IMG/VR virus record: IMGVR_UViG_3300022689_000310
DNA from: an uncultured virus (IMG/VR IMGVR_UViG_3300022689_000310)
Taxonomy: Duplodnaviria > Heunggongvirae > Uroviricota > Caudoviricetes
Strand: one strand, 5' to 3'
DNA length: 64,000 nt
Shown here: positions 69 through 24,367 of the stretch, piece by piece
Position numbering within the stretch: position 1 is the stretch's first letter
Layout: each line of letters starts with the position of its first letter
The notes under the pieces: model-generated
The model's input: the letters and a program-made list of their open reading frames with translations, nothing else
Databases searched by the model: none
Told to the model about the DNA's origin: nothing
Made by a program: the position numbers and the translations under genes

Positions 69-764
69 TCAAATAGAAGGAAGGAGTGGAAGGAAGAAAG
101 AGCGAGTAAAGGAAGGATCAAGTTTATATTTAAAGTTAATAAGAACAGATTTAGCAAACTTAAAAAGACCTTTAATAGAGATAGAAATATTAAGGAAACG
201 AGCAGTCCTAAGAATAGAAATAGAGAGAATAGAAGTTATCCAATGATAGATTCTATTAACAGGTTTCCCTTTACGATTAAAAGGACGAATAGAGTCCAAG
301 AAATCAGTAGGAAGTTTTTTACCAAAGACTTTAAGATATTTATAAATTCTTCTTTGTCCACGAGTAACAATTTGATGTACTTGAGTAGGAAGGAAAAGAA
401 GATTAGAAGGATGATTATTAAAAGTATTTCCATCAATATGATGAACTTCATAAGAAGCAACAACAGAATCATCAGGAAAAGAATAAGTTTGTATTCTAGA
501 GTAAGATAAAGAGGAAAGAGATTTAAAGCCATTAGAATGAGCTTCTTTTCCTCCACAACAAAAGAAAGCAACTACTTGATGTTTATAAACAATCTTTTGA
601 TGATTAGAACAAAAGAAATCAAAGAAGTTATTAGAAACTAACAATTCTTTAAGTTCTTTATTTTGAGGAAGAGAAAGATCATAAGCGACATATTTATGAG
701 GATATTTCCCTAAATACATGGATTGAGCTTTATTTAAAACAGGAAGTAAAGTATTATAATTCAT
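69..764 (-). CDS. HNH endonuclease (homing-endonuclease-like)
   Basis: YEVHHIDGNTFNNHPSNLLFL...H is a canonical HNH motif, preceded by the VYKHQVVAFF segment typical of phage HNH proteins. Confidence 0.85.
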   Translation of the reverse strand: MNYNTLLPVLNKAQSMYLGKYPHKYVAYDLSLPQNKELKELLVSNNFFDFFCSNHQKIVYKHQVVAFFCCGGKEAHSNGFKSLSSLSYSRIQTYSFPDDSVVASYEVHHIDGNTFNNHPSNLLFLPTQVHQIVTRGQRRIYKYLKVFGKKLPTDFLDSIRPFNRKGKPVNRIYHWITSILSISILRTARFLNISISIKGLFKFAKSVLINFKYKLDPSFTRSFFLPLLPSI

Positions 765-843: not shown

Positions 844-884
844 ATTTATAGAGATATAAATTTATATATTAAATATAAATAAAA

Positions 885-1200
885 TAAAAAGGGAGACAGA
901 TTACTCCCTTGAGCCAGACTCCCAAGTTTCTGGAAATTAATCAATGTCCCCAAAGGAACCAAAAGAAAGAATCAAATGGAAAAGGGGAAAATGAAAGGGA
1001 CTCCCTGCATCAGAGGCATACAGTAACCTTAAGAGTGAATATAAAATATTCACAAAGTGATATAGGAGGCGTGCCAGTCGTTATTAAGTCTCTCTTTACT
1101 CCTCTTGAAATAGTCCCATGACAGGACGAACCCTTTAAAACTCTCCTCTGAGCATCCGGGGGGTGAGGACCCTACGTATGAAGTAGTCCGTTGCTGACCG
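885..1200 (-). ncRNA. Putative structured ncRNA, copy 1 (unknown family)
   Basis: Relatively GC-rich intergenic island with many hairpins. The core at 1073-1198 shares three sequence blocks with copy 2 and ends on the minus strand in hairpin GGGAG..CTCCC plus a U-tract. Confidence 0.55.
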
Positions 1201-1324
1201 CTAGAATATTTTAATAAAAGTCCAAAAAGGAAAAACTCAAACTCTTAAAAAGAAGAAACAGAAATAATAAAATATCTGTTGAGTAAAATCGATTAAGGAA
1301 GTTATCCCTAAAATTCTTATCAAA

Positions 1325-1630
1325 AGGGAAAAGGACAGATTTGTCCTATGAAAAGTCCCACACATTTCTCAAGCAAATGTAAATCTTCAAAGAGATCAAG
1401 TGGAAATCCTGGTCGTTATTAAGCGTCTTTGCTCCGTCAGTATGTAAGATGTTCAAAGAGATTAAAATCCGAAGTAAGGAAAGTCAATCAAAAGAACAGA
1501 GCCCTTGAGAGTATAGTGACGGTGTGTGCTCTACGAATGAAGTAGTCCGTTGCCAGGTAAAATAAATAATCAAGAGAAGGAATTGTTTTATCCTGACTTG
1601 TTAGCGAGGTTACTATCCAAAGTTGATTAT
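1325..1630 (-). ncRNA. Putative structured ncRNA, copy 2 (unknown family)
   Basis: Core at 1408-1557 is closed by CCTGG/CCAGG with an inner CCGTCA/TGACGG stem and carries the same conserved blocks as copy 1. Ends on the minus strand in hairpin AGGACA..TGTCCT plus a U-tract. Confidence 0.55.
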
Positions 1631-1636
1631 AAATAA

Positions 1637-1645
1637 ATTATATCA
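1637..1645 (-). promoter_or_regulatory. Extended -10 promoter (TGnTATAAT)
   Basis: Minus strand reads TGATATAAT just upstream of the structured region; the AT-rich background weakens the call. Confidence 0.4.
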
Positions 1646-1895: not shown

Positions 1896-2831
1896 TTAAC
1901 CTATAACAGCGGAAGAAAAAGCTGCTCTTGAAGAGGAAAGAGAAGAAGAGGAGACTAAAGAAGAAGAAGGAAAGGAGTGAGAAAAAGTATATAAAGAGGT
2001 AGAAAATAAAGCTCTTGAAGAGGATAAATAAGAAGAAGATGTTAAAGGTGGAAATTCTTCTACAAAGTAAAGGGAACTCTTCTTAAAAATAGCTCTTTTA
2101 GAAGAGATATATAAAGAGTTGTCTAAAACAAGAGGTTCAATAGTATCTACTTGAAGAGTATTAGCAAGATCCAATTGAGGACCTCTACTAAAGTAAACCT
2201 TATCATTTATAGAATATTTAGCGAAGAGAAAATAAGAAGAGAAAGTATCAATAAAGTAAGGTTCAACGTTAGGAGTTAAATAATAATTATTAAAGGGGTC
2301 TATAGTATCAATAGGAGTAAAAGTATTATTATTAATATCATATGACATAATAACAAAATTCTCAAAAACAAGATTATCTGGAGTCCAATCTTTATCTGAG
2401 AATAAAACTTTAAGAGAATAAGGAGGAACTATTCTAAATATCCTTTCAGTATATTGTTTAAGAACGTATTTAATACGAACATTATTAATATTTTCCCAAG
2501 GGATAGAGAATGAATCAAAATAAGTATTAAGAATATAATCTGTAGGTCTAGTTTTAATTATTAAAGTATCGCGAATATCAGGTTCACTAGTAACATAAGC
2601 AAGAAAAGTAAAAATACCTAATCTGAGACCAATATCAATATCAAGAGTAATATTATCTTCAGAAGAAAGATCTAAATAATCTCCAGTTTCTTGAGACCAA
2701 GTAAGATGAGAAGCATTAGTAAAAGGGGTAATAGAAATAGAAGAGGCACAGAGGATAAGAATTTCATTACCTAATTCTAAGTAAGTATCTTCAAGTTTAG
2801 ATATGAAATGAATACATTTAATAAGAGTCAT
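1896..2831 (-). CDS. Hypothetical, probable virion protein with three C-terminal SSxRAxF repeats
   Basis: 311-aa ORF co-oriented with the structural pair; SSKRAIF/SSSRALF/SSSRAAF repeats in a Ser-rich tail. Confidence 0.6.
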   Translation of the reverse strand: MTLIKCIHFISKLEDTYLELGNEILILCASSISITPFTNASHLTWSQETGDYLDLSSEDNITLDIDIGLRLGIFTFLAYVTSEPDIRDTLIIKTRPTDYILNTYFDSFSIPWENINNVRIKYVLKQYTERIFRIVPPYSLKVLFSDKDWTPDNLVFENFVIMSYDINNNTFTPIDTIDPFNNYYLTPNVEPYFIDTFSSYFLFAKYSINDKVYFSRGPQLDLANTLQVDTIEPLVLDNSLYISSKRAIFKKSSLYFVEEFPPLTSSSYLSSSRALFSTSLYTFSHSFPSSSLVSSSSLSSSRAAFSSAVIG

Positions 2832-2841
2832 AAATTATAAG

Positions 2842-5800
2842 TTATAAAGAAGGATATTTTACATAACCATAGGATCCCGTAATACTTTTACCATTATCAG
2901 AAGGGTTGAATATTAAATAGTATAGATGCAGATAAGGTGGAATGTTAGTACTCATATTATCATTATGTCTATGGAAAACCACTTCTCCAGGAGCTGGTGT
3001 ACCCTTTTCATCATCATAAAATAGAGGAGCTTTAACACCATTAATATTTATATCTAATTCTAATTTACTACCAGAGATAGGAGCAAGATATAAAGGATCA
3101 GGAGTAATTCCTAAAGGACCATGAGGAAATTCTATTTTAATACCTTCCGTAATAGAAGTACCAGAGACAGTGAAACCAGAAGGGAAGTTAACATTTCTAT
3201 TAACAGGAGCAATATAAAGGTTATAAAAGAGTTGATAACTTGTAGTATTATCCATCAGAAATCCATTAGCCATATATTGTAATAAATATTGTCCTGTCTC
3301 AAAAACAGGAGTAGAACCAGTGCCATTAGAGAAAGAAATATCTAAATTATGTGGTCCTTTTTGTAAAGAGGTATGAGTAACTCTTGATGCTGGATGATCT
3401 TCTACCCAATTAGATCCATCCCAACCATATTTAGCCCAACCATAATTAAGAATATCATAATAACGAGAATCATATTGTGTATAAAAAAGATTACTGAAAC
3501 TAACAGAAGTCCAATGATCAACTGTATTAAGACCTAAATCATCATCTAATAAAATAAATTCAAATATCCAATCAGTATCAATTGTTGATTTAGAAGAATT
3601 AAGATGAACTAAATTATTAGACGAATCTATATGAGTAAAAATACTAGTATTAGTTACTAAGTAACCCTTCCATATAATAGGATTACCTAGATAACTATTA
3701 GTACTAGCTAAGAATCCGGGTTCATCATTGACATCAAACCAATCCCAATTATCTAAAGCTTTATTAGTAATATATGGTGTTCCTTCAATATCATCAATGA
3801 TATTAAAATCAGTTCTTCTAGTATAAACATCTAATCTTGTTGTACTTGTTGAATTAAATCTAAAATAATAATATCCATTTACCCAGATATCACCAGCGGG
3901 CCAATAAATTAGATATAGAGGATTACCAGAGGACCCAGCTCCATATCTAAAATAAATATTAGTACATTCAACAGAAGAACTATTATTAATATTCCACCAA
4001 CTGATAATATTAGAATCAGCAGTAAGACGATAATTATTAAATCTAGCAGGATCAAGACCTGAGGTAGTAACTATAGCCATATCATAAGTAGTACTATCTC
4101 TATTAATTTTTATATAAAAAATATTACTCCAGGAGTTAGGTATAGAGGCACTGTTATAAGGAAGATTAGAACCATTAACACCTCTAAGCAATAAAGGTAA
4201 AGGAGTAGACCAGTTATCACTATTACTCATTCTGCCATTAAAGATAGCAAATACTTTACTATTAAACCCTATATCAACAGCGTGACAAGGTTCATTAACT
4301 AATTTAGTTACGGTAGAAGTATCGTAATTAATTACATATAAACCAGTTTCTTTACAAGCCGCATAAATCTTTCTATTAGAATCATCAAACGAGATCTGTT
4401 TTAATTTAGTAACTGGCAATACAGGAATAGAATCTTTATCCCATGTTCTAAAATGACCATCATATAGATTTAATACTGTAAATCCCTTTCTATCCCACAT
4501 TACTATTTCTTCTTTATTCCAAGGACAAGGAAATTTAGGATAGCCTGAAGAACTACCCCTATGTCTTTTATGTTTTATACCACCATGTATAAAAGGTAAA
4601 GGAGTATATAAATCATTCTCCCAACTATTTCCATTATATGTAGAGTAATTTTTAGTTCTATAATTAAAATCATTAGAACCTCCATATTGACAAGCTATTG
4701 TTATAAATTTCCTTATCCATACTTGATAGGTTGCTGTTCCTACAGACCCACCATTAGTTATTTGTATTCGATATACTTCAGGAAATCTAGTCTCTGGTTG
4801 CCAAGTACCCTCTACTTTTATATCTCCTCTTGTTGTAGCGTTCTCTGTAGCTTCCCAAAAAGGTCTCTCAGCTCCTGCCCTTTTCATAAATCTACTTTGA
4901 AATGGCTCTGTCAAAGTATCAGTATATTTAAACCAATCATACGTAGACCCATTGCCCTGTGAATGTCCTTTTTCTGCATTAGAGCCTAAAATATTCATTA
5001 TTTTAGGTTGAGTAGTACTGTCATGGTTAAGTTTCTGATCTTGATCTCCAAATACTCCTAAGAATACAGTATTAAAAACCATACCATAAGCAGTATTAAA
5101 TAAGTCAAAATTTGTAGGATCAGATTCCCAAGTCAATGTCTTAGCTCCTATAGTTGAACCATACTTTCCATTATGTCCGATTATGTAATTCCTAGATACA
5201 TTTATATATTCATATCCATTTATAGGATCTTCTTGTATAGTAGTTGGTAAAGCACAGTATCTAGGAGAAATATTTCTAATATTAAAACTGTCATTAATAT
5301 TAATATTAGAAGTAAGAGCTAAGGAAGCAGATTTACTTTTATTAAATATTCCTATAATAGGAACTTCAAGATTGTAATAGATATCAAGATCCTCATATGC
5401 ACCTTGTGTAATGGGAGGATCAAGAATAATAGAGGAGATTACATAACAAATACTAGAACTACTATGATCTGAAATCATAAGTACGTTAAATGTAGATTCA
5501 GCTCCTGTAGAAGGAAATCTAGAATATGTTTGAGAATATAATGGTTCATCTTCTATCCTTCCAAAACAAGTACTCCTTTCAAATCCTTCAGGGAGTATAC
5601 TTCGCATTAAAGAAGGGTTAGAATTTATACTTATATTATAATTAAATGTAGTATTTGGATATGTGTATCCCGGAATATTAACTCTCCAAATATAAAAGCT
5701 ACTAAAAGATAAAGATCCATCATTTATATGATGTCTTGCTAATGATGAATAGAATCTTTCATGTAAAAAGTTAACTTTTTCTATTGGTTCTCTAGTTTCT

Positions 5801-5871
5801 TTTTTAGTGATAGAGTCTATAAATTTAATAGTATATCTACCAGTTATTTTTAAATCTTTACTATATTTCAT
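2842..5871 (-). CDS. Large beta-rich virion/tail protein, paralogue A
   Basis: 1009 aa, rich in G/N/S/T/W, colinear similarity to 5874-8834 (PEVYRIQITNGGSVGTATYQVW, EPCHAVDIGFNSKVFAIF). Confidence 0.65.
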   Translation of the reverse strand: MKYSKDLKITGRYTIKFIDSITKKETREPIEKVNFLHERFYSSLARHHINDGSLSFSSFYIWRVNIPGYTYPNTTFNYNISINSNPSLMRSILPEGFERSTCFGRIEDEPLYSQTYSRFPSTGAESTFNVLMISDHSSSSICYVISSIILDPPITQGAYEDLDIYYNLEVPIIGIFNKSKSASLALTSNININDSFNIRNISPRYCALPTTIQEDPINGYEYINVSRNYIIGHNGKYGSTIGAKTLTWESDPTNFDLFNTAYGMVFNTVFLGVFGDQDQKLNHDSTTQPKIMNILGSNAEKGHSQGNGSTYDWFKYTDTLTEPFQSRFMKRAGAERPFWEATENATTRGDIKVEGTWQPETRFPEVYRIQITNGGSVGTATYQVWIRKFITIACQYGGSNDFNYRTKNYSTYNGNSWENDLYTPLPFIHGGIKHKRHRGSSSGYPKFPCPWNKEEIVMWDRKGFTVLNLYDGHFRTWDKDSIPVLPVTKLKQISFDDSNRKIYAACKETGLYVINYDTSTVTKLVNEPCHAVDIGFNSKVFAIFNGRMSNSDNWSTPLPLLLRGVNGSNLPYNSASIPNSWSNIFYIKINRDSTTYDMAIVTTSGLDPARFNNYRLTADSNIISWWNINNSSSVECTNIYFRYGAGSSGNPLYLIYWPAGDIWVNGYYYFRFNSTSTTRLDVYTRRTDFNIIDDIEGTPYITNKALDNWDWFDVNDEPGFLASTNSYLGNPIIWKGYLVTNTSIFTHIDSSNNLVHLNSSKSTIDTDWIFEFILLDDDLGLNTVDHWTSVSFSNLFYTQYDSRYYDILNYGWAKYGWDGSNWVEDHPASRVTHTSLQKGPHNLDISFSNGTGSTPVFETGQYLLQYMANGFLMDNTTSYQLFYNLYIAPVNRNVNFPSGFTVSGTSITEGIKIEFPHGPLGITPDPLYLAPISGSKLELDININGVKAPLFYDDEKGTPAPGEVVFHRHNDNMSTNIPPYLHLYYLIFNPSDNGKSITGSYGYVKYPSL

Positions 5872-5873
5872 TT

Positions 5874-8834
5874 TTATAATGTGGGGAACTTTAGATAATT
5901 ATAATGACCTGTGATTATCTTATTAATATCTACTTCATTAAAGATTAAATAATATTCATCTAATCTATTATCGCTGGGATTCGTAATATTATTTCTATTA
6001 AAAACTACTTCTCCTAAATCAGGTTTTTCTTTATTTTGTGAGTAAAAGATATATCTTTCCAAATTTCCTACTTTTATAGACATATTATTTCTATTACAAG
6101 CCTCTACCATATAAAATTCTGGGTCAGGATCTACACCAAGAGGACTCTTAGGAAAATGAACTTTAATACCTTTATTAGGTAAATATTCACCTTGTACGGT
6201 AAAGTTATCAGGGAAATTAACAGTAACTTTTGGTAAATAAGTTTCAAGGCTTTGAACTTTATAGTATGTAGTATTATCATGAAATAATCCATGACAGATA
6301 TATTGTAACAAATATTGATTATTCTCAAAATTACCAGAGAAAGATAATATTAATCCATGTATTCCCTGTTCATTTGTATTATGAGTAATTTTTCCATTGG
6401 GGTCTCCTAATATCCAATTAGAACCATTCCACCCATATTTATCCCAAGCATGATCTTTAATAGAATAATTATTAGTATTAGACTGATTAGATATTAAATT
6501 AAATAAAGAAAAGTAATTCTTAGAAGATAGATAGAAACATAAATCTCCATCTAATACAAAGCATTTATATATAGTATGATACTTTCTATTACTTAAATTT
6601 AACCCATCCCACTTAATTAATACTTCTAGTTCATATCCTTCATATATTCTATCTGCCATTAAATTATCATTCCACAATACTGGATTCCCAGAGTTAAAAT
6701 AATAATAATTAGTATTAAAAGAATTTTCACCGAACCATTCCCAGTTATCTATTTGTTTATTAAAAATAGTGAAATTAGTTGATTCTTGATAACTATCTTC
6801 TAAAGTAAAAGATGTATTACTTGTATATCCTGAATAATTAACTGAAGTTGTTGAATTAAATTCAATAAGTTTATTATGAGTTACCCATCTATTTCCCTTT
6901 TTCCAATATTCTAAAGATAATGGATCATAACACAACCCAAAATTACTTATATATATATTTGTACATTCAGTAGATGATGTATTATTTATGTTCCACCAAT
7001 TTATTATAGCGGAGTTACTACTTATATAATATTCATTGAATTGAGCAGGAGTATTACCACTTGTAGTAACAATAGCTATATCATATGTTGTACTTTCTTT
7101 ATTTATCTTAATGAAATGTACATAATCCCAATCTTTAGTAAATGAATTAGTTCCTATATCACTACCATTTATTCCTTTTGCTAGTAATGGTAAAGGTGTG
7201 TACCAGTTATCACTATTACTTAATCTTCCATCAAAGATAGCAAATACTTTACTGTTATATCCTACATCGACTGCATGACAAGGTTCTATTACAAGATGTT
7301 CGACTGAATTATTTATATTATTTATTCTGTAGAGACCTGTTGCTTTACATGCTATATATATATATCTATTAGGAATATCAAAAGATATCTGTTTGATTTT
7401 AGTAGCTGTCAGAGTGTTAATAGAAAAAGCATCCCAAGTAATAAATTCTGAAGTGAATAAATTTATTCTAGTTATACCTTTTCTATCATACATAAATATT
7501 TCTTCTTTATTCCAAGGAGAAGGTAATTTAGGATAGAATTGAAAACTACCATGATGTCTCTTGTGTTTTAAATATGAATGTAAAAAACTAATACAAGAGG
7601 GTCTCTGATTCTCCCAATAATTTGAATTATTATCTTCTATATTACAATCACTAAAGTTATAGTATAGAATTCCACTATTATTATTTTTAGATAATTGTGC
7701 AAACTTCTTTATCCATATTTGGTATGTTGCGGTACCTATACTACCTCCATTTAGTATTTGTACTCTATATATTTCAGGGAATGAAGTTATAGGAGTCCAT
7801 TCTCCAGATATATTTATGTTTCCATTATTCTTTGGCTCTTCATCAGGATTATAATATGGACTTATAGCCTCTTGTATTTTCATATATTTGGTCTGTAAAG
7901 GAGCATTAGGAACTATTAAAGGATCATATTCATATTTGAACCAGTCAAGTCCAGAATTATACCCTTCTATAAAACCGATATCAGTGCCCGCACTTCTAGC
8001 TATTATAGGAGATGGGTTATATATAGATACTTGAGTATTAGTACCAAAGCATCCTGTTATAACTGTATTTAGAACGGTACCATAACGGGTATATTCATGA
8101 TTAGTCTCTGAAGGGTCAGTTTGCCAGACTCTAGAAATCTGACAATAGTTTCCCCCTTCTATATCTGAAGTTCCTAGATGGTCTACTCCTTCACCAATTT
8201 GTAGAAAATGATATCCCAGATCACCATAAATTCTAGGACTTAAAGGAGATTCATGGTATGAAGCTTTCATTATATGATGCCCTCTAATATTCTTATTTGA
8301 AATAATAGAGGGAATAATATTGAGATTATTGATTCTTGATTTGAAATAATTACCTGTATATGGTATCTCGATATTATAATAAATATCTAAATCTTCAAAT
8401 TCGCTTTGAGAACAATAAGGTGATATTATTAAACTTGTAAAAGGATGCGTATAGTAGTTGACATATACTGAACTAGATAGACCTACAATATTGAATATTC
8501 TTAATGAACCGATAGCTCTAAATCTTCTGGTTATTATAAAATGAGGAACTTCTTCTTCTTTAGTCGTAAATATTTTATAAGCTACATCTCCTGCTCTTAC
8601 TTCTCCTTGAGCTATATTATTAGTATTTAATCTATAATCATATGATAATCTAGGGTATTCATAATTATCTAAATATGCTATAAATAATTTAAAATCAGAT
8701 ACTGAAATACTATTAGAAAATGAGGATCTATAAAAATTTTCATGTACAAAGTTTTCTAATTTTAATGGAGGTCGAGTTTCTTCTCCAGTATATGTATGTA
8801 TAAATTTTATTTCTACTTTACCTTTTATCTTCAT
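5874..8834 (-). CDS. Large beta-rich virion/tail protein, paralogue B
   Basis: 986 aa, full-length paralogue of 2842-5871 (PEIYRVQILNGGSIGTATYQIW; C-termini KFPTL versus KYPSL). Confidence 0.65.
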   Translation of the reverse strand: MKIKGKVEIKFIHTYTGEETRPPLKLENFVHENFYRSSFSNSISVSDFKLFIAYLDNYEYPRLSYDYRLNTNNIAQGEVRAGDVAYKIFTTKEEEVPHFIITRRFRAIGSLRIFNIVGLSSSVYVNYYTHPFTSLIISPYCSQSEFEDLDIYYNIEIPYTGNYFKSRINNLNIIPSIISNKNIRGHHIMKASYHESPLSPRIYGDLGYHFLQIGEGVDHLGTSDIEGGNYCQISRVWQTDPSETNHEYTRYGTVLNTVITGCFGTNTQVSIYNPSPIIARSAGTDIGFIEGYNSGLDWFKYEYDPLIVPNAPLQTKYMKIQEAISPYYNPDEEPKNNGNINISGEWTPITSFPEIYRVQILNGGSIGTATYQIWIKKFAQLSKNNNSGILYYNFSDCNIEDNNSNYWENQRPSCISFLHSYLKHKRHHGSFQFYPKLPSPWNKEEIFMYDRKGITRINLFTSEFITWDAFSINTLTATKIKQISFDIPNRYIYIACKATGLYRINNINNSVEHLVIEPCHAVDVGYNSKVFAIFDGRLSNSDNWYTPLPLLAKGINGSDIGTNSFTKDWDYVHFIKINKESTTYDIAIVTTSGNTPAQFNEYYISSNSAIINWWNINNTSSTECTNIYISNFGLCYDPLSLEYWKKGNRWVTHNKLIEFNSTTSVNYSGYTSNTSFTLEDSYQESTNFTIFNKQIDNWEWFGENSFNTNYYYFNSGNPVLWNDNLMADRIYEGYELEVLIKWDGLNLSNRKYHTIYKCFVLDGDLCFYLSSKNYFSLFNLISNQSNTNNYSIKDHAWDKYGWNGSNWILGDPNGKITHNTNEQGIHGLILSFSGNFENNQYLLQYICHGLFHDNTTYYKVQSLETYLPKVTVNFPDNFTVQGEYLPNKGIKVHFPKSPLGVDPDPEFYMVEACNRNNMSIKVGNLERYIFYSQNKEKPDLGEVVFNRNNITNPSDNRLDEYYLIFNEVDINKIITGHYNYLKFPTL

Positions 8835-8849
8835 GAAGACTTTTATTTA

Positions 8850-10211
8850 TTAATTAAAGTATCTAGGAATAGTTTCTCCTTTATATAATTCACCGGTCTC
8901 ATTCTTATATATTAAATATAAATTATCATATTGATCATCTAATAATATACCTATAATAGGATCTCTTTTATTATTTTTGATTATATGTAATTCTGCTACC
9001 TCTTTTTGATTGAAACTAAAAGTAGTCCCATCAAATCTTTTACCCCAATTATTCTCTTCTTCTATGTCTATCACTAAATCAGTATAAGAGAAATTGAATT
9101 TAGTATTAAGATATACATCATAATGATTACTTAAATCTAAGTTATTATTATTTAAATCTAAGTTATTATAATTATAATTTCCATAACATACCCTTCCTTC
9201 TAAAGGGCATAGATTACCAATATTCATGACATATAATTTATTATATTCATCTAATTTAAATAAGAAACTCTCTTTTTCATTTATATCTATTACAAAAGCT
9301 AATTTAGGAAGTCTTATAGGTTTTATTAATTCTTTTGTTTTTAACTTTTTATCATATATATATTTAATATCTTCTGGAACACTATAAACTGTATGATTAT
9401 CTATTCCATCATTTCTCTCTGTTTCTTTCTTTCTTAATAAACATGATTCACTAAAACAATTAATACCTGCATTACCTCTATTTTTTATATCAATCAAATT
9501 ATCTCCACATAAAATCTCTTCTTCTTTTTCTTTCTTATTCTCTTTAACTATGTTACTTATAAGTTCTACTATATCTTTGATATAATTATTTATAACATTA
9601 TTTAATTCATTATACTCCTCATCTAATGGATTTTTTATTTTATAAATCCAATACAATATAAGTATACATATTTGTCGATAATCATTTAGAATACTTTCTA
9701 TTGTCTTAATACTATAGAGAATACTTCCAGAATACGATTTTATATAATTACAAATTGATATAATATCTAAATTTCCTAAATTTACTTCTAATAATTCTAA
9801 AGTTTTATCATTAAATATATCTAAATATTCTTTATATATTTCATTTTTATTTATGAAACTTTCAAATAATTCTTCCTTATTAAAGTCTGGATTAAATCTT
9901 TTTATATCTATATTTTTATTTTTTTGTATATACATATTAATTTCAATATATATATTCTCAATATAAAGATATATATTATCAATATAACTTTTTATTTTAG
10001 AATAATTTAACGCATATTTACAATTCCTTAACATATAATGAGAGATTAATTCAGAATAATCTAATCTTCTATATAATATTCTTCTAGTATCGTCTATAAA
10101 ACCAACGTATTCAATATCGCATTGTTCATCATATAAATAAATTATATCTAGTCTAATTTGTGTAGCTATAGATATTAAGTTTCTGTTTAACCAATTCTCT
10201 TTGCATTCCAT
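8850..10211 (-). CDS. Cys-motif/helical protein with C-terminal prokaryotic E2-like domain (array member 1)
   Basis: YVGF..RRLD, NCKY, SCLLRK, GNLCPLEGRVCYG, YLNTKFN. Confidence 0.55.
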   Translation of the reverse strand: MECKENWLNRNLISIATQIRLDIIYLYDEQCDIEYVGFIDDTRRILYRRLDYSELISHYMLRNCKYALNYSKIKSYIDNIYLYIENIYIEINMYIQKNKNIDIKRFNPDFNKEELFESFINKNEIYKEYLDIFNDKTLELLEVNLGNLDIISICNYIKSYSGSILYSIKTIESILNDYRQICILILYWIYKIKNPLDEEYNELNNVINNYIKDIVELISNIVKENKKEKEEEILCGDNLIDIKNRGNAGINCFSESCLLRKKETERNDGIDNHTVYSVPEDIKYIYDKKLKTKELIKPIRLPKLAFVIDINEKESFLFKLDEYNKLYVMNIGNLCPLEGRVCYGNYNYNNLDLNNNNLDLSNHYDVYLNTKFNFSYTDLVIDIEEENNWGKRFDGTTFSFNQKEVAELHIIKNNKRDPIIGILLDDQYDNLYLIYKNETGELYKGETIPRYFN

Positions 10212-10238
10212 ATTGTCTAATGAATTCTCTCCAGTAAT

Positions 10239-11648
10239 TTAATCAAGATTAATAACAATATTTCCTGACTTTAAAGTAATACTATTTTTATCTATATTTA
10301 AGTCATATGTCCTAATATTTGTATCTAGTTCATATACAATTTTATATTTTCTCTCAGTATTATTTCTTTTATCTTTTAATCCTATATTATCTACTTCTTC
10401 TAGAAAAGTATTTATATAAGTATTACCACTCATTTCATTATATCGGTAAAGAATATAATCTGAATTTTCTAAAGAGAATTCAGAATTTATATATATATTA
10501 AATGCCTCATCTAATCTTATAATATTATTATAAATCAATTCTTCGGCCCTTTGTATATTTCCCCAACATATTTCACCGTTACTATCAGTATTACCAAAGA
10601 AAGTATTAGTTATATTTTCTATTCCATTTTCTTTGTATAACCTTAAGAAATTAAATTTATCGCATATATCTAAAGTATATAAGTTTACAAATATTCCATA
10701 TGTTTTAGTGTTGACTGTAGAGATATGAATAGTCTTATTATCATTTAAATATTTATTTACAAAAGTACTATAAGGACCCTTTAAATACTTATAGATATCT
10801 TTCTTTACTGCCAATTTACAGTTATATGAATTAAAACTTCTTATATGGGAGTTACATGAGTTAGGGTCATTAGAAGATTTATCTAAATAATCCTTCAAGC
10901 AGTCTACTAATTTAATAGTTTGATCATTTATATCTTTAATAATATTATCTATAGAATCTATATGACAAAGTGTATTTGTAACATATTTAAAAGAAGATAT
11001 TATGTTAATAGTATCATTCAAAAAAGATATTCTTCTATTATGAGAGCTACTATCTTTATATTCATTATTTATACCTGTAACGTAATATTCTAATATATTA
11101 TAAAGATTTAAAATATTAAATATTATATATTTAACTGCATCATTAGAACAAAGTAAAACTGACTGACAAGTTGTAGAGATATTAGATATTTTACCATTCT
11201 GATCTATAAACTCTTTAATTACAAATTCACTATTCTTACGAGTTATAAAGGTGTATCTATATATACCTAAGTTAGATTTTATCTCAAAGGTTTTACTATA
11301 TAAACATACATTTTTATTAAATTTATTTGTAGATATTTTATTTCCATATTTTATATATTCATCTAATATCTTCTGAACTGAATAAGTATACTGTCTAAAT
11401 GGTTCTATTATGATATTATATATATTTAAATCAAATTCATTTGCCATAGAACATTTAGTACAAATATAATTTTTCAGAGGATCTTCTAAATTTAATCTCC
11501 TAATAATATGTATATCTTCTTTTATAAAAAATCCAAAATAGTAATATCTTTTTTTACTCTTATTTTCAGGTGAAATGTTATTATGATTTTTTTGTATTAT
11601 TAAAGGTCTAATCTTAATATTCTCTGGAAGTTTAATCTTAAAGTTCAT
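10239..11648 (-). CDS. E2-like array member 2
   Basis: YFGF..RRLNL, CTKC, NCKL, GNTDSNGEICWG, YINSEF. Confidence 0.6.
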   Translation of the reverse strand: MNFKIKLPENIKIRPLIIQKNHNNISPENKSKKRYYYFGFFIKEDIHIIRRLNLEDPLKNYICTKCSMANEFDLNIYNIIIEPFRQYTYSVQKILDEYIKYGNKISTNKFNKNVCLYSKTFEIKSNLGIYRYTFITRKNSEFVIKEFIDQNGKISNISTTCQSVLLCSNDAVKYIIFNILNLYNILEYYVTGINNEYKDSSSHNRRISFLNDTINIISSFKYVTNTLCHIDSIDNIIKDINDQTIKLVDCLKDYLDKSSNDPNSCNSHIRSFNSYNCKLAVKKDIYKYLKGPYSTFVNKYLNDNKTIHISTVNTKTYGIFVNLYTLDICDKFNFLRLYKENGIENITNTFFGNTDSNGEICWGNIQRAEELIYNNIIRLDEAFNIYINSEFSLENSDYILYRYNEMSGNTYINTFLEEVDNIGLKDKRNNTERKYKIVYELDTNIRTYDLNIDKNSITLKSGNIVINLD

Positions 11649-11669
11649 TATTTATCTTTCTCCATTTCT

Positions 11670-13118
11670 TTATTCATATATATATTCATAATTAGAATTA
11701 TTATATGAAAATCCAATGATACCTAAATCCGAAGGGATTGAAATATTATCTGATGCAATAATTGTTTCTGCTTTATCTACATCATTATGTATCAATAAGT
11801 CATCTGTTAAATATTTATCATTTTCTAAATATATATGATTACCATATATATCCATACTAAATGTAGATTCTAGATATAATGAAAAGAAATTTTGTAAAGA
11901 ATTAGGTTCTTTATCTATTCTAATTAAAATACTCTCTGGTATATCACCCCAACATATAGAACCATTTCTGTAAGTATTACCTAAACAACAATTATGTATC
12001 TCCCAGACTTCATTATATTTAACTCTTCTAAATAAAAATATATAATTTCGTGTATAAAAATAATTTTCAGAAGTATTAATAAATATACCTATATCTTTTA
12101 AATTTACGTAATTCAGTAAATACTTCTTATTCTTTCTCTTACATTCTTTATATATTGAGTTATGTGGAGTTTTAATATATTTAAATTTACTTTCATCAGG
12201 TATCTTTCTTAATAGACAGCCTCTAAAAGAAATAGATCTAGAACATAATTTACAACCATTTTCATTCTTATAAATACTTTTAATTTTATTATTAGCATCT
12301 GAAATGTTAAAATTGAGAGATTTTAAACAATTTTCTACTAATTGTCTTACTGATGGAATAAATCTATCTATAGTAGGAAATATATGTTCTTGTAAAGAAA
12401 CTTGACTATAACCAACTGTTGAATCATATATTACTTCTCTATTAAATAACCCAAGATAATGCAATGAATTGATAGAGATATAACCTTTATTTAATACTAA
12501 TTTAGATATCTTTTCTTTAGACATATTAATAGTTCCTAATATTTCTCTTATAAAGTTAATACCTTTTTCAGCTTCTATACGCGAAAATTCTCGTTCACTC
12601 TGTAAACTTTCTGAGACACCTGAAGGGATAATATCTATTTTAGGATTTAATATATAGTTAACATCAAGACATATGATTTTTCTATTTAAAAGATAAGACA
12701 GGATAGTATTCTTATCATTATTCATATCATTTAATATATAGCTAAGATATGTAGTTTCTTGATAATTAAATAAGATATATCTAATCCCATTATCATATAT
12801 TGAAATATCTATATCTTCTATATGTAATTGTTGTATAAAGATCTCAGACTTATGATGATGTATCAACTTTCTTATAAGACATAAAATATCCTCTATTAAA
12901 ACATTAGATATCCATTCATATATTTCAATAATCTTAGCATCAAAATCTAATGCAAATTTACAGTTCTTACAAAGGTTCCTAGATAAAGAATCAGTTATAT
13001 TTAGTCTTCTTGTAAAATATAAATCACTATTAAAAAAATATCCTAAATAATTAGAATGGCCAATTCTTATAGCAGCGGGATCTGTACCTTCAGGAATTAT
13101 TAATCTATTAGTTTTCAT
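11670..13118 (-). CDS. E2-like array member 3
   Basis: YLGYF..RRLNI, CKNC, GCLL, GNTYRNGSICWG, YLESTFSMD. Confidence 0.6.
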   Translation of the reverse strand: MKTNRLIIPEGTDPAAIRIGHSNYLGYFFNSDLYFTRRLNITDSLSRNLCKNCKFALDFDAKIIEIYEWISNVLIEDILCLIRKLIHHHKSEIFIQQLHIEDIDISIYDNGIRYILFNYQETTYLSYILNDMNNDKNTILSYLLNRKIICLDVNYILNPKIDIIPSGVSESLQSEREFSRIEAEKGINFIREILGTINMSKEKISKLVLNKGYISINSLHYLGLFNREVIYDSTVGYSQVSLQEHIFPTIDRFIPSVRQLVENCLKSLNFNISDANNKIKSIYKNENGCKLCSRSISFRGCLLRKIPDESKFKYIKTPHNSIYKECKRKNKKYLLNYVNLKDIGIFINTSENYFYTRNYIFLFRRVKYNEVWEIHNCCLGNTYRNGSICWGDIPESILIRIDKEPNSLQNFFSLYLESTFSMDIYGNHIYLENDKYLTDDLLIHNDVDKAETIIASDNISIPSDLGIIGFSYNNSNYEYIYE

Positions 13119-13182
13119 TTAAATCTCCATACAACTTATTCTCATTTAATATTGATGTAATTATTTATTAAATGTAATATTT

Positions 13183-14622
13183 TTATTTATATATAAATTC
13201 AATATGTTCATCATCATCATTAAATGACAGTCCAATAATATTAGGGTTTACTATCATAGAAATAGAGCAATTATTAAAATCATTCTTCATAAGAATACTA
13301 TTTAATGAATTTATACCCTTTTTTTTAATTAATTTTGTATCTATATATGTGTCATTTCCCATATAAATATAATAAGTTGAAATATCCATATTAAATATAG
13401 ATACTAAGTACAGTTCAAATAATTTTATTAAACTATTATCTTTTTCATTTAAATCATTAATAGTATTTCTTGGAATATTTCCCCAACATATAGAACCATT
13501 TCTATAAGTATTGCCTAAAAAACAATTATGTATTTCCCATACTTTATTGAAATTAACTCTCTTAAATACATATATATTATCTTGTTTATGGTAGCTTTTT
13601 GAAATATTAATAAATGGACCCATATCAAGTAAGTTAATATATGTATAAAGATTACCACTTTTATTAAAGTTTTCTAAGAATATAGAATCATCTCTTGACC
13701 TAATATATTTATGTTTAAATTTATTAGGTATATTCTTCAATAAACATTCATCATTAAATATTGATCTATCAAACAATTTACAGCCATACTCGTCTCTATA
13801 AATATTTTCAATTTGTATATTAGCTTTATTTAAATACTCTGTTATCTTTTCTAAAAGAATAATTACTGAAGGAATACATCTAGCATTGAATTTATTTACA
13901 TCAGGAAATACATTTCCATTTCCAATACATATAAATCTTTTTATACCTTTATAAGTATAACTTTGTCTAAGATTTATAAAACCACCTATATTAAATACAT
14001 TTAATATATTACTAAACTTTTGTGCTAGTCTATATTCATTAATCGAATTATAACCTTTATAACTAACTAGATTATATAAACACTTTCTACAATTATCAAT
14101 ATATCCAAGTAATTCCATTATAAATTCCTTACCTGTATAATAATAGTTATTTGTACTAATTGGTTCTTCAATACACAATAAAGTATTCAGATTACAACAC
14201 TTAATATTAATTGAAAAAAAGAAGTTTATTTCTTTTAAGTTTATTTCTTTTATCCTTGTTATATAAGTACAATTATTATAATTAAATATAATATAACAAT
14301 TACCTTTATATTCAAAACATTCATTTTGATTAAACAAAATACTATATTTGATATATAAATTATCAATCATTATATTATCAATAAATAAAAATATCTCATC
14401 TATAACTTGATGAGATACTTTTTCCAATACTTCAATAATTTTATTATCAAAATCTAATGCGAATTTACAATTTAAACAAGTATTTTCATTTATAAATCCT
14501 TTTATATTTAATCTTCTAGTAAAACCTATATTCTCTTTATAAAAATATCCTAAAAATGTTTGATCCCCTTTCTTTATAATTGCACCTTCTGTGTTTTTAG
14601 GAAATATTAATCTATTTTTCAT
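13183..14622 (-). CDS. E2-like array member 4
   Basis: FLGYF..RRLNI, CLNC, ECLL, GNTYRNGSICWG, YLVSIFNMD. Confidence 0.6.
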   Translation of the reverse strand: MKNRLIFPKNTEGAIIKKGDQTFLGYFYKENIGFTRRLNIKGFINENTCLNCKFALDFDNKIIEVLEKVSHQVIDEIFLFIDNIMIDNLYIKYSILFNQNECFEYKGNCYIIFNYNNCTYITRIKEINLKEINFFFSINIKCCNLNTLLCIEEPISTNNYYYTGKEFIMELLGYIDNCRKCLYNLVSYKGYNSINEYRLAQKFSNILNVFNIGGFINLRQSYTYKGIKRFICIGNGNVFPDVNKFNARCIPSVIILLEKITEYLNKANIQIENIYRDEYGCKLFDRSIFNDECLLKNIPNKFKHKYIRSRDDSIFLENFNKSGNLYTYINLLDMGPFINISKSYHKQDNIYVFKRVNFNKVWEIHNCFLGNTYRNGSICWGNIPRNTINDLNEKDNSLIKLFELYLVSIFNMDISTYYIYMGNDTYIDTKLIKKKGINSLNSILMKNDFNNCSISMIVNPNIIGLSFNDDDEHIEFIYK

Positions 14623-14650
14623 TCTTTAATTCCATTTCTATCCTTATTAT

Positions 14651-14974
14651 TTATTTTTTCCTTCTATTTTTATAAAGTCCTGGTCTATGTTTAGGAGGTC
14701 TTTTTTCAGGTGCTCTACCAGTCACTCTTTTACCATTACTTCTAGTCCTAACCCATTTACCCCTTTTGACATCTTTAAGATCTTGTCCTTTTAATTTTCT
14801 AACACTTTTAACTTTTTTATTCCAACCTACTGCTTTATGTTTCTTACCTCCTGCAGACACGGGTTTAGAAGATTTATTTACGGCTTGTTGAGGAGATTCT
14901 GCTCTAACTACTATTGGTGTATTTCTATTTCCTCTCCAAACTCCATATACAGAAAGTCTATTTATATAATTCAT
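14651..14974 (-). CDS. Small, highly basic protein (nucleic-acid binding?)
   Basis: 107 aa, very rich in K/R with few acidic residues. Confidence 0.6.
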   Translation of the reverse strand: MNYINRLSVYGVWRGNRNTPIVVRAESPQQAVNKSSKPVSAGGKKHKAVGWNKKVKSVRKLKGQDLKDVKRGKWVRTRSNGKRVTGRAPEKRPPKHRPGLYKNRRKK

Positions 14975-15022
14975 ATTATTATTTATATATGTATGTATAT
15001 ATAGTTGAATAAAATATTATAT

Positions 15023-16255
15023 TTAAATAGTAAATAAATTATCAGAATTTTCATCTGTATATAATAAATCTACTGTACAATCTCTAATTGATAAAAGAAA
15101 TCCATAAGGTTTATAATATGGATTAAATAGATTATTATTTAAATCAAATATAACTTCATCTCCTCTATAATTTTTTAGTACAATTTCTTCTGTATTGAGT
15201 CCTATTTTAAGAAAGTCATATTTATCATTAATCTGAAATTGAATACAAGGATCATGAGAGAAAGGAAATGATAAGTTTAAATAATTATCAATTATTTCTT
15301 TCATATCTAAAAAATTATCTACTTGTATATCACCCCAACATATAACATTATCATATGTTAATTCTTGTGATTCAAAAAGTCTTAATTCATCTTCTACTCT
15401 AAGATATAATCTAGTTCTTGGTATAACATTAATTTCTGAAGGACTACACCTTTTTAAAAAACAATAATTCTTTAAATTTATTGGTCTTATCAAAGTTAAA
15501 GTATTTAAAATCTTATCTAAATCCTTTATAGGTTTTATACACATATTCTCTTCTAAAGGTAAATTAGAGTCTTTTAATAAACAAGATTCATATATAGGGT
15601 AAACTTGTTTAGTACATATCTTACCTTCATTTTCCATCTGATCTAATACATCTGAATTCTTTTCTAATTCATCTTCGTATTCTTTTAGAATATTTTCTAG
15701 TTCTTCTTTTAGATGATCGACTTTAAATATACTCTCAAGAGTAAAAAAGTAACTAGAAAAATGAAATAATGCCATAAAATATGTAGTAATATCATTATAA
15801 TCTCTTAGAAAAACTATATCTTTAATCTCCTCTAAACTAAATAGATCATTTAATAATATAAATTTATCTTCATTTATATGTAAATAAGTATAACCTTTTT
15901 TATCTATATATAAATTCTTACCGATAATATCTAAACTTTTCTTTTTATTAAAATCCTCAATATTCTTATTTATAGGAGTAATATTATCTTCTATAAGTTT
16001 AAAGAATTTATTTACATGATCTTTATGAATCTTATCTATTTTTTCTGTAAGTAGTTCTTCATATCTCTTTTTAAATTTACAATTGTGACAGATATAATCT
16101 TCTGCCTCTTCACTTAAATCTAAACGGATAAAACGACTTAAACTTTGTTCAATAACAAAACCATAATAAGTTGTATAATCATCCAATTTTAATAAGATAG
16201 GTAATATATCTAGACCTGTAGGTAGTTTATAAATAACTTGATCATTATTTAACAT
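15023..16255 (-). CDS. E2-like array member 5 (most divergent)
   Basis: YYGF..IRLDL, CHNC, SCLL, YDNVICWG, YLNLSF. Confidence 0.55.
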   Translation of the reverse strand: MLNNDQVIYKLPTGLDILPILLKLDDYTTYYGFVIEQSLSRFIRLDLSEEAEDYICHNCKFKKRYEELLTEKIDKIHKDHVNKFFKLIEDNITPINKNIEDFNKKKSLDIIGKNLYIDKKGYTYLHINEDKFILLNDLFSLEEIKDIVFLRDYNDITTYFMALFHFSSYFFTLESIFKVDHLKEELENILKEYEDELEKNSDVLDQMENEGKICTKQVYPIYESCLLKDSNLPLEENMCIKPIKDLDKILNTLTLIRPINLKNYCFLKRCSPSEINVIPRTRLYLRVEDELRLFESQELTYDNVICWGDIQVDNFLDMKEIIDNYLNLSFPFSHDPCIQFQINDKYDFLKIGLNTEEIVLKNYRGDEVIFDLNNNLFNPYYKPYGFLLSIRDCTVDLLYTDENSDNLFTI

Positions 16256-17261: not shown

Positions 17262-19043
17262 ATGCCAAGATTTAGAACTTCTATACCAAATCTAGTAGAG
17301 AATTTAAATGCAGATAGAATAGATGGAAGAGATGTAGATGATATGGGTATATCTACTAATGACCTATGGACTGCTGATAAGATTAGGAACTCATCAGGTT
17401 CTTCTTTACAAGCTAATGGAAATGATATTGAATTATTGAATATGGTAGGTAATACATTAATGTCATTAACTGTGCCCTATGCAATAAATGCAGGTTCAAT
17501 AGATGGAATAGACTCTAGCTTTATGATGAAACTAGACGAAGATAATATTCCAACTTTTGATAATCTATATACATTAGGAAATACATCTAATAGATATTCT
17601 AATATATATAGTTATATATTTACTGGAGATTTAGTAGGTAATTCAAGTACAAGTACAACTTTAGAAACTGCTAGAAACATTACTTTATTAGGAGATATAA
17701 TTGAAGTATCAAATACTTTTAATGGTTCTTCTGATATTACTTTTAATATAGGTTTAAATGATAGTGGGGTAGTTCCAGGAGAATATAGTAAAGTATCAGT
17801 AGATAATAGAGGTATAATTACATCAGCTAGTAATTTAGTACCTTCCGATATCATATCTTCGTTAGGTTATATTCCATTAAATAAAAGTGGAGATACAGTA
17901 GATGGAGATTTAGTAGTACAAGGTAACTTAACTATAAGTGGTACTACATTTCAAGTTGAATCAGAACAAATTACTATAGCGGATAATTCTTTATTACTTA
18001 ATTCTAATTTTACAACAGGTACTCCATCTGAGAATTCTGGTATTGAAGTCCTTAGAGGAGATGACACCACAGTTGGTATTAGATGGAATGAATCTAATGA
18101 TGCATGGGAGATATCAGATGCATCAGGAAATTATAAAGAAGTAGCTACAATAGATGGAGGAATACTTAATTCAGATTTATTAGACGGTCTCGATAGTACT
18201 TATTTCTTAGATGCCTCTAATCTTAATACTGGTATATTACCTATAGAAAGATTACCTGGTCTTACGGGAGATATTACCTCTATAGATGGTTCTAACACTT
18301 TAACTCTTAACACAGTACCTATAGAGAAAGGAGGTACTTCTTTAACTTCAGTAGGTCTAGATCAAAGTATCTTAAGTGTATCTGGAGGAGGATTAGTATA
18401 TAGAATTATTAATACATCTTCATTAATAACTCTTACTACAAATACATCTGCATATACTTTAGATATAGGAGATATTGGTTCTATTGATAGAGATATCTTT
18501 CTCTATTCATTATATATCTGGGATAAGAGTTATTATTTAATATTAGATAGGACTGATTCTTGGTATGATATCCCCCATTTTATAGTTGATTCTTTGGAGA
18601 CTGATTCTTTTTCTTATTTATATATAAATAGACCTATAGAATGGGATAGAATTTATAGATTAGCTATGGATATCTCTTTTAATATGAATTCTATATATGA
18701 TCCATTAGACCCTTCTTGGAATGATGGTAGAACAACAGGAGTACTTTGGGTTAGACTTATAAAAGTTTCAGATGATACAATTATCTATAATGATGTAATA
18801 AATTTATCAGGTATGGTATTAGAAAATGACATATATCCATTAATAATAGACATAGGGAATATTTCTATCAATGATAGAGTTAAATTATCTATAGGTATCT
18901 TTTGGGATGAATTATCTGATAGTTGGCCCTCTAGTAATATTAGTGGAGATGGAGTTACAGATAATTATTTAAATTATGGAAGTGAAGTGTATTTAAATAT
19001 ACATAAAGTAGCAATTAATGTTTATGACAGAATGCCTAGTTAG
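17262..19043 (+). CDS. Tail fibre-like protein
   Basis: NADRIDGRD and SDLLDGLDST repeats, LETARNITLLGD, GVVPGEYSKVSVDNRGII, LGYIPLNKSGDT and VPIEKGGT are typical tail-fibre motifs. Confidence 0.8.
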   Translation: MPRFRTSIPNLVENLNADRIDGRDVDDMGISTNDLWTADKIRNSSGSSLQANGNDIELLNMVGNTLMSLTVPYAINAGSIDGIDSSFMMKLDEDNIPTFDNLYTLGNTSNRYSNIYSYIFTGDLVGNSSTSTTLETARNITLLGDIIEVSNTFNGSSDITFNIGLNDSGVVPGEYSKVSVDNRGIITSASNLVPSDIISSLGYIPLNKSGDTVDGDLVVQGNLTISGTTFQVESEQITIADNSLLLNSNFTTGTPSENSGIEVLRGDDTTVGIRWNESNDAWEISDASGNYKEVATIDGGILNSDLLDGLDSTYFLDASNLNTGILPIERLPGLTGDITSIDGSNTLTLNTVPIEKGGTSLTSVGLDQSILSVSGGGLVYRIINTSSLITLTTNTSAYTLDIGDIGSIDRDIFLYSLYIWDKSYYLILDRTDSWYDIPHFIVDSLETDSFSYLYINRPIEWDRIYRLAMDISFNMNSIYDPLDPSWNDGRTTGVLWVRLIKVSDDTIIYNDVINLSGMVLENDIYPLIIDIGNISINDRVKLSIGIFWDELSDSWPSSNISGDGVTDNYLNYGSEVYLNIHKVAINVYDRMPS

Positions 19044-23575: not shown

Positions 23576-24367
23576 TTATTTATCTATAAAATGTACCCAA
23601 AAAGATCCATCAGGAATACATAATCTTTTTATCATGTCATAACTATATAATAAATTCTCTCCACTTAGATCAGTCCTATAACCATTTGGAAACCATTCTC
23701 CATAAGGATCATTTACATAGAATCCTTTCTCATTAAATCCTCTTACAGCAATAATATGACCAAAACTAGTAAAGTATCCGTGTATTATAAGGGGCATATC
23801 TTTCTGATATATATGCTTTTTACAATCACTGATAGTACAATGAGTTTTGAAATCATCTATAAAACCATACTGTCTAATAACTTTAGCTAGATCATGTGGG
23901 CTATGTCTACTTAAACCATTATCAATCATATAATTATATAATTCATCTTCCAATTGTGTATATTTACCTGAAGGTCTAATCCCCAAATAATATAAACACA
24001 TAGCTACAGAAGTTACATTACAAGAACCAGTAGGGTTATAAAAGTTATCTAATTGACTAAAATGAGGTAAATCAATTGAATATTGATTTGGATATGGATA
24101 ATCCTTATCAATAACTAAATCTTTATTAGAACCATTATGTTTAGTAACTGATACATGAGGTTCATATAAAAAGAACTTTTTATAATCTTTAAAAATAGAA
24201 TTAGATTCTACTTCTACCAGAATATGCTCATTTCTAGTCTCTTCTATGGATATAGCTTGGAAACTCTCTCCTTTATTAAAAGGTTTTATATCATCTTCAT
24301 TTAGCTCAGAAGACTGTAAAGGTGATGATTTAAAGAGAGTATTAATAATAGAATTAATAGTATACAT
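23576..24367 (-). CDS. C39-like cysteine peptidase, probable endolysin or cell-wall hydrolase
   Basis: QLDN..GSCNVTSVAM (Gln/Cys), GHIIAVRG (His), VNDPYGEW (Asp), plus an N-terminal cyanobacterial-style module (TLFKSSPLQSSEL). Confidence 0.8.
   Translation of the reverse strand: MYTINSIINTLFKSSPLQSSELNEDDIKPFNKGESFQAISIEETRNEHILVEVESNSIFKDYKKFFLYEPHVSVTKHNGSNKDLVIDKDYPYPNQYSIDLPHFSQLDNFYNPTGSCNVTSVAMCLYYLGIRPSGKYTQLEDELYNYMIDNGLSRHSPHDLAKVIRQYGFIDDFKTHCTISDCKKHIYQKDMPLIIHGYFTSFGHIIAVRGFNEKGFYVNDPYGEWFPNGYRTDLSGENLLYSYDMIKRLCIPDGSFWVHFIDK

Follow-up and report, generated by a model that had tools for sequence, protein, structure and literature searches.

What is encoded in the only long non-coding stretch of an otherwise tightly packed piece of phage DNA? 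The DNA analyzed here is a phage-like stretch of 64,000 nt, below called the window, with a GC content of about 25% and the standard genetic code. Its minus strand carries 48 of the 49 open reading frames (ORFs) of at least 150 aa found in the whole window, and several window ORFs are preceded by GGAG Shine-Dalgarno-like motifs. The gap at 765-1895 (1131 nt) is the longest between ORFs of at least 150 aa and the sole long non-coding stretch of the window; the other examined gaps of more than 150 nt between large ORFs, as well as the other intergenic GC peaks, hold small genes. Judging from the nucleotide sequence, this gap most likely contains an uncatalogued gene for a small folded RNA, present in two old copies that have diverged.

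The gap and its gene neighborhood

An earlier reading, made from the sequence only, had described positions 885-1645 as a gene-free, relatively GC-rich island, and both parts of this description hold. The region contains no ORF of at least 150 aa, merely short ORFs without conserved frames, and the island is the GC maximum of the whole window. This maximum, 0.50 vs. a mean of 0.252 and a standard deviation of 0.053 (in 120-nt windows), lies within the gap 765-1895, and the GC enrichment at the locus is about 700 nt wide, exceeding the conserved blocks described below alone.

Family matches in the window are few and phage-like, namely the HNH endonuclease, two rIIA-like ATPases, a tail-fibre-like protein, patatin, SelO, UDG, thymidylate kinase, and photolyase-like and actin-like proteins. 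An accessory set unusual for a phage is located at 23576-57499. The HNH gene and the members of this set are as follows.

69-764, minus strand: HNH endonuclease gene, free-standing, on the downstream side of the RNA locus (PHROGs HNH families, E = 1e-5)
23576-24367: peptidase C39-like, accessory set
27303-27974: UDG, accessory set
29322-30371: actin/ParM-like, accessory set
35069-36016: patatin-like phospholipase, accessory set
43763-45361: photolyase-like FAD domain, accessory set
56657-57499: SelO-like adenylyltransferase, accessory set

The HNH gene also matches Pfam HNH_3 (E = 6e-5, 23.0 bits, under the cut-off of 24.8). No Shine-Dalgarno motif is visible before it, and its ATG is 47 nt from a hairpin at 811-843. 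On the other side of the locus, a strongly pyrimidine-rich minus-strand stretch of about 250 nt within 1646-2040 separates the RNA locus from the neighboring gene for a 311-aa protein (1896-2831, minus strand), the tail of which is Ser-rich and of low complexity. A possible 51-aa plus-strand ORF (1751-1906), encoding a hydrophobic helix, shares 11 nt with the end of the 311-aa gene. Seven large minus-strand ORFs (410-1009 aa) situated upstream of the RNA locus, in 2842-16255, have zero Pfam or PHROGs matches and, by their composition, may encode structural or tail proteins. Only one large gene is on the plus strand (17262-19043); its PHROG matches, to tail fibres, are weak, and it shares 8 nt with the start of the minus-strand gene 19036-20547. 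The two large rIIA-like proteins with HATPase_c domains are encoded at 20842-23544 and 40050-42965 (minus strand); their best tblastn matches in known phages have just 26-27% identity over the first 260-270 residues.

The 311-aa protein has one relative among 5.8 billion proteins, P0002 (71% identity), in which the last residues of the protein (SSSRA.FSSAVIG) are conserved. Since P0002, its sole known relative, is encoded on a 209,968-bp contig, the phage lineage is of jumbo size; it is also hardly sampled.

Conserved blocks and paired strands of the two copies

The sequence-only reading had reported two copies of three blocks in the same order, and direct reading finds every block in its place. 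In plus-strand letters, TCGTTATTAAG occurs at 1078-1088 and 1413-1423, TCTTTRCTCC at 1093-1102 and 1426-1435, and CTACGWATGAAGTAGTCCGTTGC at 1172-1194 and 1531-1553. On the minus strand the order becomes block A (GCAACGGACUACUUCAUWCGUAG), block B (GGAGYAAAGA), and block C (CUUAAUAACGAC). A fourth colinear block, D (AUCNCUUUG), was newly found in both copies, at 1061-1053 and 1396-1388, and begins 11 nt past the stem that closes the core, an offset identical in the two copies. The features of the two units, in minus-strand order, are the following.

1558-1636, minus strand: copy 2 leader, in which GUCAGG (1597-1592) can pair with CCUGGC (1557-1552), replacing the closing stem
1408-1557, minus strand: copy 2 core (model R1, 179.6 bits)
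1553-1531, minus strand: copy 2 block A, with the hairpin CUAC-UUCAUUC-GUAG
1530-1528 with 1424-1422, minus strand: copy 2 short stem AGC/GCU
1435-1426, minus strand: copy 2 block B, GGAGCAAAGA
1423-1412, minus strand: copy 2 block C, CUUAAUAACGAC
1388-1396, minus strand: copy 2 block D, AUCUCUUUG, 11 nt after the closing stem
1073-1198, minus strand: copy 1 core (model R1, 145.3 bits)
1194-1172, minus strand: copy 1 block A, with the hairpin CUAC-UUCAUAC-GUAG
1171-1168 with 1090-1087, minus strand: copy 1 short stem GGUC/GACU, with one G.U
1102-1093, minus strand: copy 1 block B, GGAGUAAAGA
1088-1077, minus strand: copy 1 block C
1053-1061, minus strand: copy 1 block D, AUCACUUUG, 11 nt after the closing stem
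911-1052, minus strand: 3' domain found in copy 1 only, with a hairpin at 1053-1035 and a second CUGGCU at 917-912

The units are about 330-360 nt each and similar only within the blocks. Identities between the copies are 22/23, 12/12, 9/10, and 8/9 in the blocks, with fixed order and offsets, whereas outside blocks A and C identity between the cores is seen in 34 of 100 aligned columns, a share close to the 25% of random sequence. As blocks are conserved while their flanks are close to random identity, the duplication appears to be old, with selection holding four short blocks. The identity of the blocks is at the nucleotide level, and variation of the synonymous type is absent. With up to three mismatches, the 23-mer block has 2 matches in 64 kb, a number reached in 0 of 100 shuffles; GCAACGGACTAC, with up to two mismatches, also has 2 matches in the window, reached in 3 of 100 shuffles. 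The 12-mer CTTAATAACGAC alone is not rarer than chance (8 matches with up to two mismatches vs. 6.5 expected), its only exact copies being the two colinear ones. A search for antisense targets of the blocks within the window found none.

The sequence between the blocks differs, yet the pairing proposed earlier for it is retained on the minus strand. All five pairs of the closing stem form in both copies, as GUCAG/CUGGC in copy 1 (1198-1194 with 1077-1073, one U.G) and as CCUGG/CCAGG in copy 2 (1557-1553 with 1412-1408); three of these pairs are changed on both sides, one on a single side (U.G to C-G), and one is invariant. The short stem, GGU(C)/(G)ACU vs. AGC/GCU, has one double and one single change, and the CUAC/GUAG hairpin, described as invariant, is the same in both copies. 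The central insert likewise varies as had been noted, blocks A and C being separated by 94 nt in one of the copies and by 118 nt in the second. In the aligned cores, the 12 proposed pairs are formed in all 24 cells of the two copies, with four double and two single changes, and pairing falls to 17-50% when the 3' partner is slid by 1-3 columns. RNAalifold independently recovers the closing stem and the CUAC/GUAG hairpin, and adds a fixed CG/CG pair joining the two junction strands. For the four variable pairs of the closing stem in both copies, a Monte Carlo estimate gives p = 3.9e-4 in register and p = 0.041 when offsets of 0-3 are allowed on both sides. In addition, YAAAG of block B and CUUUG of block D are complementary over 6 bp in each copy, the Y giving U.G or C-G, and this pairing is a candidate pseudoknot across the closing stem.

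The two sequences that define the structure are also those in which its covariation was assessed, and the observed covariation was equalled in 25 of 500 column shuffles. The minimum free energies (MFE) of the cores do not differ significantly from those of dinucleotide shuffles on the minus strand (z = +0.56 and -1.21); the plus-strand values are +1.28 and -0.67, and for the whole units z is -0.78 and -0.85. In the isolated cores, the closing stem forms with a probability of about 1. In copy 1 this drops to 0.001-0.004 once the 3' domain is included, and in copy 2 it is 0.09 for the fold from the putative start and 0.72 for the fold from the core to the terminator. The stem is rarely predicted in full-length folds because its strands have other partners: GGUCAG, the 5' strand in copy 1, can pair with CUGGCU of the 3' domain, and CCUGGC in copy 2 can pair with GUCAGG of the leader. 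Forcing the closing stem of copy 1 costs 3 kcal/mol (-84.8 vs. -87.8 kcal/mol in the free fold). These competing pairings may be noise or true alternative states. The middle stems beyond the three counted here do not align between the copies. The earlier proposal of a functional RNA fold is borne out in part: an element at the RNA level, neither coding nor tRNA, is supported, as are helices kept by compensatory changes beside the invariant unpaired blocks, whereas the energies of the cores are no better than those of shuffles and the covariation comes from two sequences.

Orientation and transcription signals

Minus-strand orientation, which had been preferred with some reserve, is favored by the G.U pairs, the terminators, the motif TGATATAAT, and the orientation of the genes. 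Two G.U pairs of copy 1 become A.C if read on the plus strand. One inner stem of copy 1 does pair better on the plus strand, where it is a helix of the MFE structure, as the same reading had cautioned. Terminator-like sites in 600-2100 number two on the minus strand (910-889 and 1347-1332) and zero on the plus strand, with a shuffle mean of 1.1. The two hairpins, with their U tracts, both contain AAUCUGUC, in agreement with the terminal hairpins originally described, and the TGnTATAAT reported at 1637-1645 is read directly on the minus strand as TGATATAAT. The candidate signals are listed below.

1637-1645, minus strand: extended -10-like TGATATAAT, a candidate promoter some 80 nt before the copy 2 core
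1322-1347, minus strand: terminator-like hairpin AGGACAAAUCUGUCCU followed by UUUUCCCUUUU (6 pairs, 3 of them G-C), the weaker one
880-910, minus strand: terminator-like hairpin AAGGGAG-UAAUCUGU-CUCCCUU followed by UUUAUUUUAU (7 pairs, 4 of them G-C)
811-843, strand not assigned: strong two-way hairpin, the third terminator (15-nt arms, 93% complementary)

The consensus scan called no full sigma-70 promoter on the minus strand; TGATATAAT was passed over because no -35 hexamer fits. As no such promoter was called, transcription of copy 1 may come from read-through at the weak terminator of copy 2. The 3' domain of copy 1 is C/U-rich at about 1000-950 and there resembles the terminator tail of copy 2. 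An intrinsic terminator 3' of the units on the same strand is what a stand-alone small RNA gene should possess, and the two minus-strand sites agree with this. The hairpin at 811-843, with T runs on both sides, lies between the RNA locus and the HNH gene, and a third terminator at this place also fits a stand-alone RNA.

We give somewhat better than an even chance to the interpretation that the locus encodes orphan small RNAs of a new family, either as two genes or as a single transcript of two units, which would act in trans via the invariant unpaired blocks. The small non-coding RNA or RNAs would be transcribed from the minus strand, starting probably at the extended -10 (1645-1637) and perhaps a second time just before copy 1, and would end either at 1347-1332, the weak terminator, or at the two stronger terminators, 910-889 and 843-811. 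Each unit is predicted to contain a core of about 125-150 nt, in which the 5-bp closing stem brackets a junction. The invariant junction strands that are expected to be unpaired are GCAACGGA, the 7-nt loop UUCAUWC, GGAGYAAAGA, and CUUAAUAACGAC, with AUCNCUUUG kept beyond the stem, while the helices and the insert of 94 or 118 nt appear free to vary. The invariant unpaired nucleotides could form a recognition surface. We suggest that such a stable small RNA would bind a phage or host protein or RNA in trans, rather than act as the leader of the next gene.

Known classes, alternative explanations, and significance

That the copies could not be matched to a known family was confirmed by a search of Rfam: none of the 4227 models of Rfam 15 reaches its gathering threshold in the whole window. 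At E up to 10, nothing relevant is matched inside either core, also when each core is searched alone; the only weak matches to the cores are two CRISPR-repeat models (E = 6 and 8.7) and rli33 (10 bits). Weak Rfam matches to SpR14, PyrR, and GcvB were caused by the hairpin 811-843. At the same limit, no riboswitch model matches over the cores, and the hammerhead, twister, twister-sister, pistol, hatchet, and HDV models have no match; no hammerhead core motif is visible by reading.

Several other classes were considered and rejected. For tRNA, tmRNA, and armless tRNA, ARAGORN finds 0 genes in the window, and again 0 with the intron, tmRNA, and mitochondrial settings; at the 80% threshold it makes two implausible calls only, with introns of 72 and 183 nt. 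The loop UUCAUWC resembles a CAU anticodon loop, although copy 2 has U at position 37. A protein-coding gene is rejected, since a start-bearing ORF spanning the blocks is absent and the residues between the blocks are unrelated. Only one frame reads through blocks A and C, and it has no start codon in copy 1 and is interrupted by an in-frame TGA in copy 2; recoding of TGA to Trp, which would open the copy 2 frame, is dismissed because TGA ends tightly packed genes elsewhere in the window. The 70-aa plus-strand ORF 909-1121 has no relative besides itself among 5.8 billion proteins. The copies have only short blocks in common, which does not fit the template and variable repeats of a DGR, and there are only two of them, which does not fit a phage promoter or an iteron. 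A group I or II intron is rejected on the lack of a Rfam match and on the completeness of the upstream 311-aa gene, with its C-terminus conserved in P0002. Type III toxin-antitoxin RNA repeats are short, near-identical, and placed directly before a toxin gene; the units here are about 330-360 nt and alike only in the blocks, and what follows them, past another terminator, is the HNH endonuclease gene.

Homologues were sought in several collections. No match was obtained by blastn with 780-1760 against 50,697 phage records or with 1060-1570 against 72,556 plasmids. In IMG/VR, a 17-mer pattern gave 0 loci, an 18-mer pattern 1 locus, GC-rich and without the flanking block, a gapped A...C pattern 2 loci, both coding, and a gapped B..C pattern 4 loci, all coding and three of them from one phage type. 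The 18-mer gave 22 loci in metagenome contigs, none with GCAAC upstream or block C downstream, and 21 loci in GTDB genome contigs, none with the flanks. A search of IMG/VR gave no relative for the 311-aa, 1009-aa, and rIIA-like proteins, and the two-sequence alignment likewise found none. On the window itself, model R1 (filters off, E up to 10) finds only the two copies, the next best match having E = 0.17.

A cis-acting role would place the two units among riboswitch-like attenuators arranged in tandem, in which aptamers sensing a ligand or protein would gate late-operon transcription toward the HNH gene, the closing stem and its alternative pairings setting terminator read-through. Tandem complete riboswitches each consist of an aptamer and a terminator, and here also two aptamer-sized cores stand in series on one strand with an intrinsic terminator after each. 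The closing-stem strands have conserved-looking alternative partners (GUCAGG 1597-1592 in copy 2 and CUGGCU 917-912 in copy 1), AGY is present twice, each time able to pair with RCU, and invariant junction strands are typical of aptamers. However, the alternative pairings leave out the terminator stems, which form in both free and forced folds; no terminator/antiterminator overlap was found; the distance from core to terminator is 60 nt in one copy vs. about 160 nt in the other; and no riboswitch model of Rfam matches at E up to 10. In addition, unlike tandem riboswitches, this locus is followed by an extra terminator, the strong one at 811-843, preceding the sole downstream gene, an HNH endonuclease, which is not a typical regulated gene. 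We consider attenuation unlikely. Less probable still are two self-cleaving ribozymes belonging to a new class, which would process the late transcript at its 3' end or free the RNA lying between the two. Known small ribozymes are often found in such phage settings, and a small junction of several stems, in which unpaired nucleotides are invariant and helices vary, present in two nearby phage copies, would suit them, but the models of known classes are unmatched at E up to 10, no hammerhead core is visible, and no cleavage site is marked in the sequence.

The conservation could also reside in the DNA, if the blocks were protein binding sites serving regulation, recombination, replication, or packaging, and the complementarity beside them were incidental. 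The blocks are identical at the nucleotide level, block A includes CTAC-N7-GTAG, a dyad of 4 bp, a fold has no thermodynamic support, and the locus adjoins a homing-type endonuclease gene. Such an element is nevertheless rather improbable: it would have just two copies in 64 kb, with the next best match of model R1 at E = 0.17, the blocks are asymmetric, the double changes keep pairs with G.U appearing only on the minus strand, the two terminators have the matching orientation, and the GC enrichment extends over about 700 nt, beyond the blocks. Finally, the locus may be a decaying remnant, a functionless old duplicated RNA gene or mobile-element relic in which the stems are due to chance or left over. 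That there are two copies only, that copy 1 apparently has a collapsed terminator (GGGAGUCCC) near 1004-996, that the fold statistics are weak, and that homologues are absent from large collections are all in line with decay; identities of 22/23, 12/12, 9/10, and 8/9 beside flanks of random identity are not explained by it. Conservation of this kind beside randomized flanks needs continued selection on both copies, and we hold decay to be a minor possibility.

The preferred interpretation, two orphan small RNA genes or one two-unit transcript acting in trans, can be compared with known systems. PMC6429828 presents GC-rich intergenic regions (GC-IGRs) in AT-rich genomes as a signature for finding structured RNAs, and orphan candidates of this type are apparently also the subject of PMC8632094 and PMC11109978. 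Like these, the present locus is a long, GC-rich, gene-free gap in a genome of 25% GC, with conserved unpaired blocks beside variable helices and intrinsic terminators at the end; unlike them, with their many homologues and covariation statistics, it offers two paralogues on one phage contig. RNAC and RNAD of phage T4 are described, in the review PMC3014915, as transcribed from the tRNA region, with unknown roles. They too are two small, stable-looking RNAs lying side by side in a large lytic-type phage; the 64-kb window, in contrast, contains zero tRNA genes, and no DNA similarity to the 50,697 phage records was found, in a comparison at the sequence level. Homing endonuclease genes are also present near the RNAC/RNAD locus, and the phage collection is one which we take to include T4. 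The phi29-type pRNA is a phage-encoded RNA of about 120-170 nt with a three-way junction and helices free to vary in sequence, and the cores resemble it in size, in the arrangement of variable helices round a junction, and in being of phage origin. They differ in matching no Rfam family (the library presumably contains a pRNA model), in belonging to a large genome with rIIA-like genes and not to a small phi29-like phage, and in that no loop-loop complementarity between the two copies was seen by reading.

A bolder proposal, to which we assign a low probability, is that the cores belong to a new class of small functional RNA that folds by itself, either an aptamer or a ribozyme with self-cleaving activity, and that a hardly sampled lineage of large AT-rich phages employs it in tandem for processing or gating its late transcripts at their end. 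About 40 invariant unpaired nucleotides would then build an active centre round the junction, possibly locked by the B/D pseudoknot (YAAAG with CUUUG). The roles of ribozyme, scaffold, or decoy named in the sequence-only reading are possible for the cores but unsupported.

Few non-coding RNAs have been recognized in large phages. The locus is a clean and compact candidate: it has terminators of its own, its four single-stranded blocks are invariant and its helices interchangeable, and it comes in two natural variants within a single genome. If the RNA is an aptamer or a ribozyme, a new RNA class would be added; if it is bound by a host or phage protein, it would represent a new RNA-based step of the infection cycle in an almost unsampled phage lineage.
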